Source: a virus (taxonomy: Duplodnaviria > Heunggongvirae > Uroviricota > Caudoviricetes). Taken from it: 64,000 nucleotides of DNA. This document shows, piece by piece, positions 16,172 through 49,839 of this stretch. Position numbers and translations under genes: made by a program. Location of the stretch: the IMG/VR virus record IMGVR_UViG_2648501839_000008; one strand, given 5' to 3'. Every line of letters starts with the position of its first letter. Within the stretch, counting starts at the first letter, position 1. Below the pieces are notes generated by a model, which had not been told where the DNA came from, searched no databases, and worked only from the letters and a program-made list of their open reading frames with translations.

Positions 16172-16230
16172 GACCTGCTTCCGTATATTTAATAAGTTAC
16201 TTATTATTTATATATATACAGAAACAGGTC
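16172..16230. repeat. 58-bp nested-palindrome element, copy 1 (arms CCTGCTTCCGTATAT, palindromic core TAATAAGTTACTTATTA)
   Basis: Near-identical to 49782-49839 in the same orientation. Confidence 0.6.
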
Positions 16231-16238
16231 ATGAATAC

Positions 16239-17942
16239 TTAATTATTAAGCAATCTGCTCACACGTAGTTTGTTAAGACTTGATCTAGAGGCCAGTTTCG
16301 TTAATGCACCTATTGCTTTATTCGTGATTTTTTGCTGTTCTTCTGTTAGTTCTTGCATACTTTTGAATCTGAGCAACCCCTTTCTCACTAAATCCAAAGC
16401 ATCCTGATTGCGGGATAGTATCCACTTTAAATAATCATCTTCAGAGAAACTGTTAAGATATGCTATGTCACTATGATTAAATTTGCCTTCAATTATTTTG
16501 TATAAAACATTCTCTAAATTAGTCTCTTCAGGCTTCTTATCCATCAATTTTTTTTGAATTAGCAGACCTAACTTTTCGTTACCAAATATCTCTACATACA
16601 AATTCCGAAAAGCAGTATAAGCATCATCTTGGCTAACAAAGGCATCTGCATATGCCTCTATATAACTATCACAATCAATCTCCAATCTATTTAAGATATC
16701 AATCAAGCCTATGAAGTGAGCAACAGGTATGTGTGAAAGATTGTCGTTAATTACACATTTTATCTTAGAAATAAACTCAGATTCATTGTCCTTGAATGAG
16801 TCACTAAAAATATCCCAAACATTGTTAACATCACATAAAGCCTTGTGTTCTTTATATTGTTTATTTTTTTCTTCTATTATACCTCGAATATTGCTTTCAG
16901 TAGAAAGATAACCATTCTTGAGATAAAAATCTATGTCATCATCGAAAGCAATTTCCGCTCGTTCATAAATAACATCAAGACTATTAATAAATGAATATAC
17001 AGAATCATCCTTTTTATCATCTAACATGTAATCAAATACATGTATGTTTTTAATTGATTCTTTAAACAAGGCATAATCAACACCTGGAACACCAGAATAG
17101 TAAACCACTGAAAACAGAACCAATCTATTGATAAAACTTTCTCTAACCTTATCCTCTGCCAAGCTTAGCTCATTCCTAAGATTAACCAGAGATGTTTTTA
17201 TTTTATTTAATATACGGATATTTTTAATGCCTAAGTCATTTGCTAAGACTTTTAACAAAAGAAAATCAGAATCAGTTTCATAAAAAACTTTACGTAAGTT
17301 CTTCTCAGGCGTAGGATCGTATTTTATTTCGACATCAATTACTTTTTCTCTGTACTCTAAAAACTGTTTTTTTGCAGTTTCATCATGTAAATTATCTTCA
17401 TTTAAAATTAGAACAACTTTGCAACCTTTTCTTCTTGCTAATTCATCAATTACCCCCATAATTTCTTTAACTTCTAGCGAATTACCTTTTCTTTCAACAT
17501 CATCAATACAAACCAAATAATTATTAACAAATTTATACTCAAGAGATGACAGCAGGTTATCTGTTTTGAACCCAAAAAAATCGTTCTTTCCGAAATGTAT
17601 TAAAAATTTTGACAAGGAGTTGTATTTCAACCATCCCCAAAACCCATTTCTATAACGAATCATAGTTCGATCCGTTTCAGATAAAATTAGTTCTTTATAT
17701 TTCTTTTCATTAATTGGTGTGGCACAATGATAAAGAGCTTTTTTAATATCACCAATAGAGTTAACCCCAAACAAAGAAACATACGAATATGCATTAAAAT
17801 CTAATCCTTCAGAATGCTTAGTATAAAAACTATTCCAATAATGAGTTTTACCAACGCCCCAATCTCCTTTTATGACGGCAACCCGATGATCTGAAACTAG
17901 AAAATTTTTTAGAAATGATTCTATCGATTCCATTAGTATCAA
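16239..17942 (-). CDS. KAP-family-like P-loop NTPase, AT-rich gene
   Basis: N-terminal GDWGVGKTH (GxWGxGKT KAP-type Walker A); Walker B-like VCIDDVER; 567 aa; lower GC than flanks. Confidence 0.55.
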   Translation of the reverse strand: MILMESIESFLKNFLVSDHRVAVIKGDWGVGKTHYWNSFYTKHSEGLDFNAYSYVSLFGVNSIGDIKKALYHCATPINEKKYKELILSETDRTMIRYRNGFWGWLKYNSLSKFLIHFGKNDFFGFKTDNLLSSLEYKFVNNYLVCIDDVERKGNSLEVKEIMGVIDELARRKGCKVVLILNEDNLHDETAKKQFLEYREKVIDVEIKYDPTPEKNLRKVFYETDSDFLLLKVLANDLGIKNIRILNKIKTSLVNLRNELSLAEDKVRESFINRLVLFSVVYYSGVPGVDYALFKESIKNIHVFDYMLDDKKDDSVYSFINSLDVIYERAEIAFDDDIDFYLKNGYLSTESNIRGIIEEKNKQYKEHKALCDVNNVWDIFSDSFKDNESEFISKIKCVINDNLSHIPVAHFIGLIDILNRLEIDCDSYIEAYADAFVSQDDAYTAFRNLYVEIFGNEKLGLLIQKKLMDKKPEETNLENVLYKIIEGKFNHSDIAYLNSFSEDDYLKWILSRNQDALDLVRKGLLRFKSMQELTEEQQKITNKAIGALTKLASRSSLNKLRVSRLLNN

Positions 17943-17984
17943 TCCTTTAATTCATATATTGGGCGTAACAAACGCCCAATATAA

Positions 17985-18344
17985 TCAACCTTTCTTCATC
18001 AACTCTCGTTTAATTTCATCGGTACGCATCGTAACGTCGGCAGCTGTGATCGCCTCGTTAAGCTTCACGATGTCCTCGATTTCCTGCGGTGACTTCTCTG
18101 CCAGATGGAAAATGGCTGCTCGAATCACGTCAGAACGAGTGAACTTCTCGAAGCGAGGGATGAACTTCATCATCTCCAGCAGTTCGAAGTATTCGTCTTC
18201 CAGTGACATTGTGCGGCTTTTAATTTTCTCTTTGCCACGAGTCGGGCGTCCCTGTGGTCTGACTGGTTGGCGCAAAGGAGTTGTGTTCTTAGCCGGTGCA
18301 TCAGGCTCTTTGCGCTTTGCTAGGTCACCCATTTTCATGGACAT
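17985..18344 (-). CDS. Small partition partner protein (ParG/ParB-like centromere binding, type Ib), tentative
   Basis: 119 aa; basic N-terminus; start overlaps ParA stop at 18344. Confidence 0.45.
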   Translation of the reverse strand: MSMKMGDLAKRKEPDAPAKNTTPLRQPVRPQGRPTRGKEKIKSRTMSLEDEYFELLEMMKFIPRFEKFTRSDVIRAAIFHLAEKSPQEIEDIVKLNEAITAADVTMRTDEIKRELMKKG

Positions 18345-19012
18345 TATTCTTCTTCCTCCAGACTCAACAGATAATCTACAAATTCTTCAAACTCGGCTTC
18401 AGCCTTTTTGTCGCGCTCGCTACCGGTCATTTCGAAGATAGAACGACCAGACTCTTCCGCATCATCGTAGACGTTGCGGTTATATAGATTGACTGGCGCA
18501 GACTCGATGCCAAACGTCTCGACAATCTCTTTAGCCGCCAGAATGCGAGACACTTGTGATGGCAAAGCCGGGCACTGGTTCATGACCGCGCGGACCTTCA
18601 CTTTATCGTTTACATTACGAACATTGTCGATAATAGGATCGATGTCACGCAGAGATTTCAAATCACGACGCTTAGGACGAAGCGGGATAATGATAACGTC
18701 GGCCATCAGCATCGCTTGTCGCTGAATTTCGGAGTCAAAGCCACCAGCATCTACCACTACAAACTCAGCTCTACCCTGAAGCGATTTTAGGTGCTTAATG
18801 ATGTCATCCTGGACGTATGCAAAAGGAATCAGCTCAAGGTCTTCGTTCTGTCGACGGTCTTCACACCAGCTCGTTGTCGTGCGCTGAATATCTATATCGG
18901 TAATATAAACCTTCTTCTTCTTTTTGACTTTCAGGCAAACGGCAATTTGCTGGGCAACGGTGGATTTGCCAGGCCCGCCCTTTGTGCCGCCAACCACAAA
19001 GATCTTGGTCAT
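18344..19012 (-). CDS. parA: ParA/Soj-family partition ATPase (small, type Ib)
   Basis: Deviant Walker A GGTKGGPGKST; 222 aa. Confidence 0.85.
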   Translation of the reverse strand: MTKIFVVGGTKGGPGKSTVAQQIAVCLKVKKKKKVYITDIDIQRTTTSWCEDRRQNEDLELIPFAYVQDDIIKHLKSLQGRAEFVVVDAGGFDSEIQRQAMLMADVIIIPLRPKRRDLKSLRDIDPIIDNVRNVNDKVKVRAVMNQCPALPSQVSRILAAKEIVETFGIESAPVNLYNRNVYDDAEESGRSIFEMTGSERDKKAEAEFEEFVDYLLSLEEEE

Positions 19013-49035: not shown

Positions 49036-49667
49036 TATTCGTCCTCCCCTTCACTTCCATCATCTGTCGCATCAAATTCGCTTAGAGCTTCTTCTTCCAA
49101 CGTCTCAAGCAATTCGTCATCGATGATTTCAGGCTCGTCGTCTTCCTGACGTAATTTCGCCACCTGGGAAGGCGTAAGCTCACCAAATACCAGGTTCGGA
49201 ATTTCTTCCTCGTCATTTTCCGCATGATCCATGCCCAATGCTTTGGACGAAACTTCAAAGCATTTTGCAAGGGTATTACTGGCTCTCTGTAAGCTCTTGA
49301 GAGAATCCTCAATCGCCCCTAAAGGCTTACCCTCACGTTTGGCCGTAGTGACTTCGACCATCACCATCTGCCCCAACGCATACGCCCAGCCGTCATAACG
49401 TGTACGACGTTCTTCTATCTTTTCCGCACGGGCTTTAGCGCGAAGCTCTGCGTCAGATTTAAGAGACTCACGAACCATCTTCCCAACAGAGTCCGCGCCT
49501 TTCTCTAATCCTCGCTTTTTGAAATGTCTGGAGAGTGTTTCACGACGAATGCCGTACTCTTCCTCCAGCTTTGAGAGTGTATATTCGCCTGACGTCCATT
49601 TGGCTTCAGCTTCGGCCCACTCCGCTGGTGTCAGGCGAGTTTTTACCTCGTCTTTTTCGACCGTCAT
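49035..49667 (-). CDS. Terminase small subunit (HTH N-terminus, acidic C-terminus)
   Basis: 210 aa; start/stop overlap with large terminase; acidic tail. Confidence 0.6.
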   Translation of the reverse strand: MTVEKDEVKTRLTPAEWAEAEAKWTSGEYTLSKLEEEYGIRRETLSRHFKKRGLEKGADSVGKMVRESLKSDAELRAKARAEKIEERRTRYDGWAYALGQMVMVEVTTAKREGKPLGAIEDSLKSLQRASNTLAKCFEVSSKALGMDHAENDEEEIPNLVFGELTPSQVAKLRQEDDEPEIIDDELLETLEEEALSEFDATDDGSEGEDE

Positions 49668-49704
49668 AGATCCCTCTAAAACACACAGAGCGCGTCCATG
49701 CGCT

Positions 49705-49746
49705 CTAAAACAACTTGTTTACTGCATTTTCTAACCAACTTGTTTT
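49705..49746. promoter_or_regulatory. Two O2 palindromic operators upstream of terminase operon
   Basis: aaaacaacttgtttac (49705-49720) and aaccaacttgttttct (49731-49746). Confidence 0.45.
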
Positions 49747-49781
49747 CTGGGTTGTTTAATTAGGTCTGGGCATGTCTTATT

Positions 49782-49839
49782 AAGCCTGCTTCCGTATATA
49801 TTTAATAAGTTACTTATTATTTATATATACAGAAGCAGG
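49782..49839. repeat. 58-bp nested-palindrome element, copy 2
   Basis: gcctgcttccgtatatatttaataagttacttattatttatatatacagaagcaggtc; near-identical to 16172-16230. Confidence 0.6.

Follow-up and report, generated by a model that had tools for sequence, protein, structure and literature searches.

Intrinsic terminators bound the morons and operons of prophages, and phage T7 carries about 10 RNase III processing sites (R0.3 ... R18.5) with characteristic internal loops. N15 (Sop) and RK2 (KorB OB sites) have dispersed palindromic centromere/operator sites of 13-16 bp, and the phage-plasmid P1 has loxP, a 13 + 8 + 13 bp site with an asymmetric spacer, present once per genome beside cre. Analyzing a window of 64,000 nucleotides, which is an E. 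coli SSU5/pHCM2-type phage-plasmid, we found two near-identical palindromes of ~55 bp with AT-rich cores, far beyond chance expectation and as a sequence-only reading of the same DNA had claimed. A search of related genomes for the element and its copy number identified a conserved set of three per genome in SSU5/pHCM2-type phage-plasmids, here called A and B, which lie in the window (Table 1), and C, which lies outside it (93248-93304 in the near-identical genome CP054387.1; 78084-78138 in Cyrano).

These palindromes resemble moron and operon terminators in their GC-rich-base hairpin, the sense U-rich tract at A and C, a location at the 3' end of a lysogenically expressed operon with variable cargo just upstream, and the ordinary terminator-like hairpin that a Morganella relative has at position A. 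In contrast to such terminators, their stem is long and mostly A-U, the dyad at B lacks a U-tract, and three similar paralogues exist that a standard terminator scan misses. Like the T7 sites, they form a small family of related intergenic hairpins at gene-block boundaries of one phage genome; a stem of more than 20 bp of double-stranded RNA would match RNase III substrates in length only, and processing would leave stable 3' hairpins on upstream messages, but A and C carry terminator-type U-tracts. The N15 and RK2 sites are similar in being a few copies of one palindrome placed around a (phage-)plasmid at operon boundaries, where they could double as roadblocks, but the palindromes here span 55-100 bp, and the two ParB-like proteins of the window show by eye no obvious HTH, only an N-terminal ParB/Srx domain (with a GxxRxxA-type motif, also by eye) and acidic tails. 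P1 likewise combines inverted repeats containing CGTATA with an encoded tyrosine recombinase; unlike loxP, the palindromes have arms 23 bp apart, three sites, and no recombinant junctions.

Copies A and B share a 33-nt identical stretch and differ by two TA-dinucleotide length changes and 2-3 substitutions. With up to 3 mismatches allowed, the 16-nt arm has 5 matches in the window (0.41 expected; 0 of 100 shuffles), and the four arms of the two copies account for four of them. The 17-nt core TAATAAGTTACTTATTA occurs exactly in both copies and nowhere else in the window. Only small asymmetries, C vs T at arm position 9 and TTTAAT vs ATTATTT in the core, give meaning to the direct orientation ascribed to the pair, and these agree between the two copies. 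Copy B is also the center of an extended dyad of ~100 bp, which the earlier reading had missed.

Table 1. Positions of the palindromes and of neighboring genes and motifs in the window
Feature	Position	Strand	Description
Palindrome copy A	16172-16230 (palindrome 16174-16228)	.	gaCCTGCTTCCGTATAT-TTAATAAGTTACTTATTATTTATATATATACAGAAACAGGtc
Parts of copy A	arms 16174-16189 and 16213-16228; core 16190-16212		AT-rich core, includes TAATAAGTTACTTATTA
U-rich tail of hairpin A	16160-16173	-	Directly 3' of the hairpin on the transcribed strand: UCUUUCAAAAGA
Gene upstream of copy A	16239-17942	-	KAP-family P-loop NTPase (Pfam KAP_NTPase); variable cargo, end of parA operon
First gene downstream of copy A	15316-16065	-	249 aa, phrog_2500, function not assigned; heads DnaB-helicase/primase operon
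Member of dispersed GATAAGTAAGTA motif family	16069-16090	-	Promoter- or operator-like; just upstream of the 249-aa gene
Palindrome copy B	49785-49839	.	CCTGCTTCCGTATATATTTAATAAGTTACTTATTATTTATATATACAGAAGCAGG
Parts of copy B	arms 49785-49800 and 49824-49839; core 49801-49823		
Extended dyad around copy B	49763-49861	.	~100-nt interrupted hairpin; copy B at center
Outer stems of the extended dyad	49763-49770 and 49854-49861		GGTCTGGG / CCCAGACC, plus CTTATT/AATAAG
Gene upstream of copy B	49864-50130	-	88-aa protein, phrog_900; winged-helix-like by eye
Gene downstream of copy B	49035-49667	-	terS-like DNA-binding protein; followed by terL (47779-49035)
terS leader, copy B to terS	49686-49748	-	Two AAACAAnTTGTTT-type motifs (49704-49723, 49729-49748)
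Canonical terminator-like hairpin in terS leader	49686-49707	-	
Tyrosine recombinase	3386-4489	-	No link to the palindromes found

Mapping the element across genomes, we found it in 800 plasmids and about 95 viral-contig instances, and it is a hallmark of the SSU5/pHCM2-type phage-plasmid family. All 95 instances with full flanks fall into three positional classes (one of them as a divergent class A): A between the par/cargo operon and the replication operon, B between the wHTH operon and the terS/late operon, and C after the adenine methylase. In the annotated sequences examined (SSU5, Cyrano, and the window), every site falls at a module boundary where the genes on both sides run in one direction, and in all three classes the next start codon follows the hairpin after 109-119 nt. 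The earlier description of the surroundings holds, copy A lying 3' of the KAP-NTPase gene and copy B upstream of terS, between it and the gene for the 88-aa protein, which the Cyrano annotation calls a "DNA binding domain containing protein" and which is syntenic beside the B dyad in all relatives examined. At copy A homology stops, with relatives' matches to window positions 15000-18000 ending at 16216-16236, and the A-side flank varies throughout the 31 class-A instances. Paralogues are ~88% identical, no more alike within genomes (0.888) than between genomes (0.880) to a degree that would suggest general homogenization. Moreover, among class-B and class-C instances with two scorable flanks, hybrid flanks, the signature expected from crossover between sites, occur in 0 of 64 (33 B, including that of the window, and 31 C).

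The transcribed strand at both window copies encodes a stable predicted RNA hairpin with a GC-rich base (CCUGCUUCUG/CGGAAGCAGG): sense (-) strand RNA gives -25.7 kcal/mol (z -5.8) for copy A, and -strand RNA gives -50.6 kcal/mol (z -10.8) for the copy B dyad. The stems are unusually long (~27 bp) and AT-rich. Counting unique variants and requiring at least 5 T in the 8 nt after the stem, we found a sense-strand U-tract in 16 of 18 A variants and 17 of 21 C variants, compared with 4/18 and 0/21 on the opposite strand, and in none of the 18 B variants from the E. coli/Salmonella/Klebsiella group. In the window itself the A tail contains 4 T in 8 nt, where most relatives have UCUUUUAAAAGA or UCUUUUUCUAUG, and a simple intrinsic-terminator scan flags neither window copy. 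In class A, sense RNA is more stable than antisense in 12 of 12 variants through G-U instead of C-A; in class C, antisense RNA is more stable in 8 variants and sense RNA in 2, so there is no uniform sense-strand RNA signal. The proposal of bidirectional terminator/insulator hairpins is the best supported of those made in the earlier reading, except that A and C look unidirectional, with a U-tract on the sense strand only, and B is not a canonical terminator.

More diverged relatives retain the hairpin while its sequence changes. The Raoultella-type site A has GTA/TAC replaced by CAT/ATG on both arms, which makes three compensated pairs, and in one lineage the outer stem of class B shows compensation at 2 positions. 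At the K. michiganensis-type B site the arms have diverged and T8AT6 comes after them; a hairpin lying inside the right arm, together with this T-run, was flagged as terminator-like. In Morganella, position A has an ordinary GC hairpin, canonical terminator-like, with a U-rich tail, and no CCTGCTTC-type palindrome was seen there. The Acinetobacter phage-plasmid has a ~125-bp dyad with different arms at the B position and at no other, making B the most widely conserved of the three sites.

Expression across site A comes from a relative, Cyrano/pLF82. Published RNA-seq of LF82 lysogens of Cyrano gives LB averages of 50, 89, and 55 for CYRAN_28, CYRAN_29, and CYRAN_30 and of 6 for CYRAN_31, and in B6 and macrophage samples CYRAN_30 has a log2 value of about 10 and CYRAN_31 of 2.3-4.2 (PMC9928086 supplement). 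Only a 193-bp gap containing site A separates CYRAN_30 from CYRAN_31 in Cyrano coordinates. At the level of genes in lysogens of this relative, RNA therefore drops across site A by ~10-fold (LB averages) to more than 100-fold (log2 values, B6 and macrophage). Expression is at background on both sides of sites B and C, so the drop evidence concerns site A only.

On balance, we favor the view that the palindromes are a family-specific hairpin module that bounds three large co-directional gene blocks and acts mainly at the transcript level, as a long-stem intrinsic terminator/insulator. RNA polymerase arriving from the upstream block would transcribe the palindrome, and the RNA would fold into a ~27-bp hairpin based on a GC-rich CCUGCUUCYG/CRGAAGCAGG stem. 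At A and C, the U-rich tract immediately after the hairpin would then release the transcript, and a separate promoter-like region ~110-120 nt beyond the hairpin would start the next block. Copy A would in this way allow the plasmid-maintenance/cargo operon (here parA and the KAP NTPase) to be on in the lysogen while keeping its transcripts out of the lytic replication genes; cargo just upstream of A would be co-transcribed with the par operon yet terminated. In some lineages (Cyrano, L088-type and Raoultella-type A, and one C) the core is inverted relative to the flanks, and these inversions, together with the strong RNA drop in Cyrano, fit a symmetric hairpin whose U-tract comes from the flank. 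We infer that the hairpin itself causes the drop across A and that C acts like A. Copy B, with the same hairpin in a ~100-nt dyad and without a U-tract, is probably a site of pausing, of RNase III-type processing or of 3'-end protection where the wHTH operon ends, or has an added DNA-level role.

A DNA site for a dimeric phage protein is a less likely reading but a serious one, and it keeps alive the regulator binding sites proposed earlier. For each of the three downstream blocks, the dyad would be a putative operator, roadblock, or upstream activating site bound by a protein such as the adjacent 88-aa wHTH or a TerS-like protein, and a protein roadblock would account for some or all of the termination at A. 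Within the E. coli/Salmonella/Klebsiella group the arms (CCTGCnTCYG) hardly vary beside 150-bp flanks only ~78-88% identical, although lineages with invariant arms are close kin anyway (TerL at least 95% identical). Across six aligned sequences, all three paralogues share one unchanging half, CCTGCTTCYGTATATATAAATA, and also TATATAAATA, whereas the mirror of that half varies, and arm substitutions at positions 6 and 9 are uncompensated within the core group. Uncompensated arm changes, the invariant half, and the paralogue identity together hint at sequence-specific recognition beyond the hairpin. Outer TCTGG/CCAGA repeats are kept even beside variable cargo, and from E. coli to Acinetobacter, Aeromonas, and Cupriavidus the B dyad, with a palindrome particular to each lineage, has a small DNA-binding gene as its syntenic neighbor. 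The core also resembles the lineage's dispersed promoter/operator-like motif, in E. coli (ATAAGTAAC vs GATAAGTAAGTA) and in Acinetobacter (TAAGTGCTTAC vs TAGTAAGCGCTTACTA). However, lineages whose arms are identical have wHTH proteins that differ by up to 25%, the orientation of the core is reversed in several lineages, arms drift in more diverged relatives while the hairpin is kept, and a protein site does not explain the sense-specific U-tracts at A and C.

In a broader form of this idea, to which we give a similarly minor weight, the element would be a sequence-specific DNA-level dyad of the lytic program, serving as multiple packaging-initiation sites, as origin/cruciform loading or cleavage sites for T4-like replication, or as repressor-type roadblocks, with two of the three copies doubling as terminators. 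It draws on the invariant half, the large B dyad, the outer repeats, and a linear SSU5 record that ends inside the B core, between CCTGCTTCCGTATATATT and TAATAAGTCACTTAGTA. It is doubtful that packaging itself starts at or within copy B, as a pac or cos site, with the virion DNA end in its core and A and C inactive or auxiliary. B is a large dyad with repeated flanking motifs, is widely conserved, and lies just upstream of terS, the classical cos/pac location, and a headful packager could tolerate several pac-like sites. Yet the isolate-assembly contig L061 ends inside a class-A core, which indicates that the palindromes break assemblies and that the SSU5 ends may be an artefact, and the Cyrano paper shows no experimental determination of the record start. 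TerL belongs to the Terminase_6 / T5- and Jersey-like group (~25% identity), so that a lambda-type cos is not implied; three cos sites would fragment the genome, and in Acinetobacter another gene lies between the dyad and terS.

Very doubtful is a role as DNA structures of lytic replication, either origins with inverted initiator sites and an AT-rich unwinding core or cruciform "fragile sites" at which phage SbcCD/RuvC-like nucleases would cut and thereby initiate recombination-dependent replication of the T4 kind. An AT-rich core between GC arms does resemble such origins, copy A directly precedes the DnaB/primase operon, UvsX/UvsY/gp32/UvsW-like proteins, an SbcCD-like nuclease, and RuvC are encoded in the genome, and the core flips show that arms occasionally recombine or hairpin. 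However, GC skew stays positive all around the Cyrano genome and does not switch at any of the sites, a candidate initiator did not emerge (no domain could be recognized in the 249-aa neighbor), Acinetobacter relatives manage with one site, and the strand-specific U-tracts would stay unexplained.

Finally, the sequence-only reading's lox-like sites, at which the encoded tyrosine recombinase (confirmed as a Phage_integrase-family protein; Pfam Phage_integrase, 6e-10) would mediate dimer resolution, cyclization, or segment inversion, fail on geometry and on comparison and are highly improbable: beyond the hexamer CGTATA, common to palindrome and loxP arms (8/13 positions ungapped, compared by eye), and the homology break, variable cargo, and rare core inversions that could suggest recombination, the near-symmetric AT-rich core puts 21-25 bp between arms (23 in the window) instead of a 6-8-bp asymmetric spacer, resolution systems use one site instead of three, hybrid flanks are absent from the 64 B and C instances and gene order stays the same, the arm sequence changes in diverged relatives that retain the hairpin, and the recombinase gene lies ~12 kb from the nearest copy and had no match at E ≤ 0.01 in a PDB sequence set that should include Cre.

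Phage-plasmids of the SSU5/pHCM2/pMT1 type occur widely in Klebsiella, E. coli, Salmonella, Enterobacter, and Yersinia pestis, some with resistance genes, and to our knowledge hardly any work has addressed how they are regulated. Short-read assemblies of these plasmids appear to break at the 55-bp repeats, a practical concern for typing. If a DNA-level role in packaging, replication, or roadblocking were true, the element would be an entry point to the lytic-switch mechanics of the family. As boundary elements, the three copies would provide a simple map of transcriptional domains and explain where cargo such as the KAP NTPase inserts, namely where it can be expressed in the lysogen yet remain shielded from the lytic genes.

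Comparing the window with related genomes, we found a ~99% match to 'Escherichia phage CMS-2020a' (CP054387.1, 109 kb) and collinearity with Salmonella phage SSU5, E. coli phage Cyrano (= pLF82), and many ~100-115-kb plasmids; the window is therefore part of an SSU5/pHCM2-type phage-plasmid. In its 8-53-kb part, nearly all genes are encoded by the - strand. The two near-identical palindromes noticed in the sequence-only reading, here sites A and B, were both confirmed. The arms of each copy are CCTGCTTCYGTATAT(A), the 17-nt centre TAATAAGTTACTTATTA is exact in both, and a 33-nt stretch is identical between them. 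Arm and core each match the window five times, against 0.41 and 0.21 expected, and 0/100 shuffles reach five in either case. Their reported direct orientation is correct in a weak sense: each copy comes close to symmetry, and what little asymmetry there is runs in one direction in both. Site B sits inside a longer dyad, and the - strand RNA of this region folds at -50.6 kcal/mol (z -10.8).

The related genomes searched carry three copies each rather than two, at conserved positions that define classes A, B, and C. SSU5 has three sites equivalent to those of Cyrano, and the third copy of CP054387.1 lies beyond the window. A 96-nt query around B matched 12 phage records and 800 PLSDB plasmids, almost all of them non-mobilisable, from Klebsiella (313), Escherichia (237), Enterobacter (92), Yersinia (62), Salmonella (49), and other genera. 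An arm scan of IMG/VR returned 120 stretches, in which every true palindrome is SSU5-like; single-arm matches are chance hits in unrelated sequence, with the one exception of L061 (IMGVR_UViG_2602041547_000006), a contig ending in an A core. The palindrome is a three-copy, family-wide element, a larger finding than the one first reported. We found no description of it in the searchable literature, including that on SSU5 termini and packaging, and an Rfam search of the window matched only three tRNAs, leaving the palindromes covered by no RNA family.

Each of the three sites lies at a module boundary between co-directional genes, with 109-119 nt from palindrome to next start codon in all classes. 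Among 95 instances with full flanks (31 of class A, 33 of class B, 30 of class C, and one divergent class A), the cargo-side flank of class A is variable in 31/31, and the homology of relatives to the window ends at copy A. The 3' end of the parA operon, directly upstream of A, is a cargo hot spot in the window and at the equivalent position in relatives; in Cyrano, CYRAN_30 lies downstream of the RelE/ParE-like CYRAN_29, and the cargo genes are expressed in lysogens. The conserved operon upstream of B keeps its synteny in phage-plasmids ranging from those of E. coli to those of Acinetobacter, Aeromonas, and Cupriavidus.

Coordinates of the palindromes and of other features (window positions unless another record is named)
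Feature	Position	Strand	Remarks
Site A	16174-16228		Upstream: parA operon and variable cargo (KAP NTPase in window, DUF2971 protein in SSU5, CYRAN_30 in Cyrano); downstream: 249-aa gene heading DnaB/primase operon
Cargo hot spot	16239-17942	-	
Site B	49785-49839		Upstream: 88-aa winged-helix-like gene, last of ParB-like/ABC-ATPase operon; downstream: terS
Outer dyad of B	49763-49770 / 49854-49861		GGTCTGGG pairs with CCCAGACC
Operon upstream of B	50140-53037	-	Two ParB/Srx-N-domain proteins, two ABC-type ATPases, 88-aa wHTH-like protein
Site C			Directly after adenine methyltransferase gene
Third copy	CP054387.1 93248-93304		
Cyrano sites	A 31159-31211; B at record junction; C 78084-78138		
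Acinetobacter dyad	L133 2200-2325 = Acinetobacter baumannii pORAB01-1, CP015484.1 77544-77669		Multi-layer, ~125 bp, B-equivalent position; CCGACATTTGGG .. TTCCGCA .. CTTCGAATA-AT-rich-TATTCGGAA .. TGCGGAA .. CCCAAATGTCC
Motif GATAAGTAAGTA, examples	7976-7987	+	
Motif GATAAGTAAGTA, examples	16078-16089, 21992-22003, 34272-34283, 40774-40785, 44345-44356, 46168-46179, 47772-47783, 53064-53075	-	
Dyad AAACAAnTTGTTT(TCT)	2463-2486, 15293-15316, 19049-19072, 49704-49723, 49729-49757, 58850-58873, 59335-59358, 60289-60312, 60773-60796		
Canonical terminator-like hairpin	49686-49707	-	TAGAGCGCATGGACGCGCTCTG then TGTGTTTTAG; terS leader, downstream of putative late-promoter boxes
Degenerate 120-nt-period repeats	23734-25218	-	70-78% identity, 5 copies of 77-nt unit; in tail-fibre genes 23166-24788 and 24748-27306
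GC-rich inverted pair AGCGCCCACTATGGGCGCT	57234-57258 / 57735-57759		476 nt apart, opposite orientation; second copy followed by T-run (terminator-like)
Two 20-nt hairpin-type inverted repeats, CACAGCGTTGAGCGG.. and CACAACGTTGAGGCC..	6495-6572 / 7495-7616		Flank three-tRNA cluster 6985-7228

The most likely function of the palindrome is that of a long-stem terminator/insulator hairpin at operon boundaries, one of the options raised in the sequence-only reading; the case for this role is good at A, the role is probable at C, and at B it is no more than possible. Scoring a U-tract as at least 5 T in the 8 nt after the stem, we found one on the transcribed strand in 16/18 variants of A and 17/21 of C, compared with 4/18 and 0/21 on the opposite strand. 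In 12/12 class-A variants, the sense RNA forms the more stable structure of the two strands. Published RNA-seq values for LF82 lysogens, taken from the PMC9928086 supplement, place the parA operon genes CYRAN_28, CYRAN_29, and CYRAN_30 at 50, 89, and 55 (LB averages), with CYRAN_30 at log2 ~10 in B6 and macrophage samples. Past site A, 193 bp further on, CYRAN_31 shows background levels in the same source (6, or log2 2.3-4.2), a drop of ~10-fold to >100-fold. The core of Cyrano A is inverted relative to that of the window, yet the drop is present; the effect is therefore independent of core orientation, as expected of a symmetric hairpin with its U-tract in the flank.

Several features are at odds with a plain terminator. 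A simple terminator scan flagged neither A nor B of the window, and 0/18 core-group variants of B have a U-tract. Of the class-C variants, 8 have the more stable RNA on the antisense strand and 2 on the sense strand. Within the core group, changes at positions 6 and 9 of the arm lack compensation; across all aligned paralogues the half CCTGCTTCYGTATATATAAATA never varies while its mirror half does, and the outer TCTGG/CCAGA repeats are retained even next to variable cargo. Moreover, the palindrome core resembles the dispersed motif GATAAGTAAGTA, and an Acinetobacter analogue of this motif matches its own B core. These features, together with a paralogue identity that stays at ~88% in the absence of general homogenisation, keep alive a sequence-specific DNA-level role, which we consider unlikely as an addition to the hairpin function. 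General concerted evolution of the copies was rejected, as paralogues are about as alike inside one genome (0.888) as across genomes (0.880); conversion-like cases are isolated (for instance, one contig with A = B and two with B ~ C at 0.93-0.94).

The motif GATAAGTAAGTA itself has 23 hits in the window at up to 2 mismatches, mostly on the coding (-) strand, against 4.0 expected and with 0/100 shuffles reaching that number. Ten hits were compared with ORF starts, and each precedes a start codon by 11-59 nt, several head and tail genes being among those concerned. The motif looks like a phage-specific promoter or operator and agrees with the T4 late promoter TATAAATA at 6/8 positions. TAAGTAAGTAA gives stop codons in all three frames, and the analogous dispersed motif of the Acinetobacter relatives is TTAGTAAGCGCTTACTAA. 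Members of a second dispersed family, the dyad AAACAAnTTGTTT(TCT), precede parA and, at a distance of 22 nt, the DnaB helicase gene, and the terS leader has two in tandem; the dyad may serve regulated (late?) promoters as an activator or operator box. The canonical hairpin of the terS leader, which appears to be conserved in both SSU5 and pMT1, could serve as an attenuator or as a target of antitermination, by analogy with lambda tR'.

With regard to packaging, the linear SSU5 record (NC_018843) ends within the B core, and the Cyrano record ends 1 nt away. L061, an isolate contig, likewise ends 23 nt into its class-A core, so an assembly artefact is at least as likely as a physical end. The Cyrano paper reports no termini experiment, GC skew is positive throughout and does not switch at the palindrome sites, and TerL is of the Terminase_6 type, ~25% identical to T5- and Jersey-like enzymes, from which no packaging prediction follows. 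That assemblies of SSU5-like plasmids appear to break inside the palindromes is a practical caveat for short-read typing.

The proposal that the palindromes are recombination sites is very unlikely to hold, and the 'lox-like' label is wrong. A tyrosine recombinase is indeed encoded at 3386-4489 (Pfam Phage_integrase match), but its gene lies ~12 kb from the nearest copy, and a sequence search against solved structures (E<=0.01) gave no match. The conserved arms are 21-25 bp apart around a near-symmetric AT-rich core, the resemblance to loxP is confined to CGTATA, there are three sites per genome, and the hybrid flanks expected from inter-site crossover occur in 0/64 B or C instances. A T4-late-promoter reading was considered as well, TATAAATA being invariant on the sense strand of the six aligned sequences. 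This explanation was dropped, as several lineages have the core in flipped orientation; moreover, the gene that follows site C, CYRAN_80, is at background in lysogens (PMC9928086 supplement). A T4 MotA box (TGCTTtA) in the arms, whose spacing to any -10-like hexamer is unfit in a by-eye comparison, and a ParB/parS reading, for which the two ParB-like proteins have by eye no obvious DNA-binding HTH, were rejected as well.

As a hairpin, the element can be followed into diverged relatives. Lineages with invariant arms have TerL proteins at least 95% identical. In the Raoultella-type element (249-aa homologue 59% identical), CCTGCT.CC/GGAAGCAGG is kept and GTA/TAC has become CAT/ATG on both arms, amounting to three compensated pairs; the outer stem of B has two compensated positions in one lineage. 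The K. michiganensis-type B has diverged arms followed by T8AT6, and its right-arm internal hairpin with the T-run is flagged as terminator-like. Moellerella and Xenorhabdus retain AT-rich dyads with drifted arms. At the Morganella A position, the stretch read has no CCTGCTTC-type palindrome but an ordinary GC hairpin followed by a U-rich tail. In Acinetobacter phage-plasmids (TerL 59% identical), the B position has a single ~125-bp dyad whose arms differ but whose centre, TAATAAGTGCTTACTT, is similar; 120 Acinetobacter plasmids have this dyad in identical form, with one copy detected per plasmid. Thus, hairpin and position persist across wide divergence, and the sequence is kept only among close relatives.
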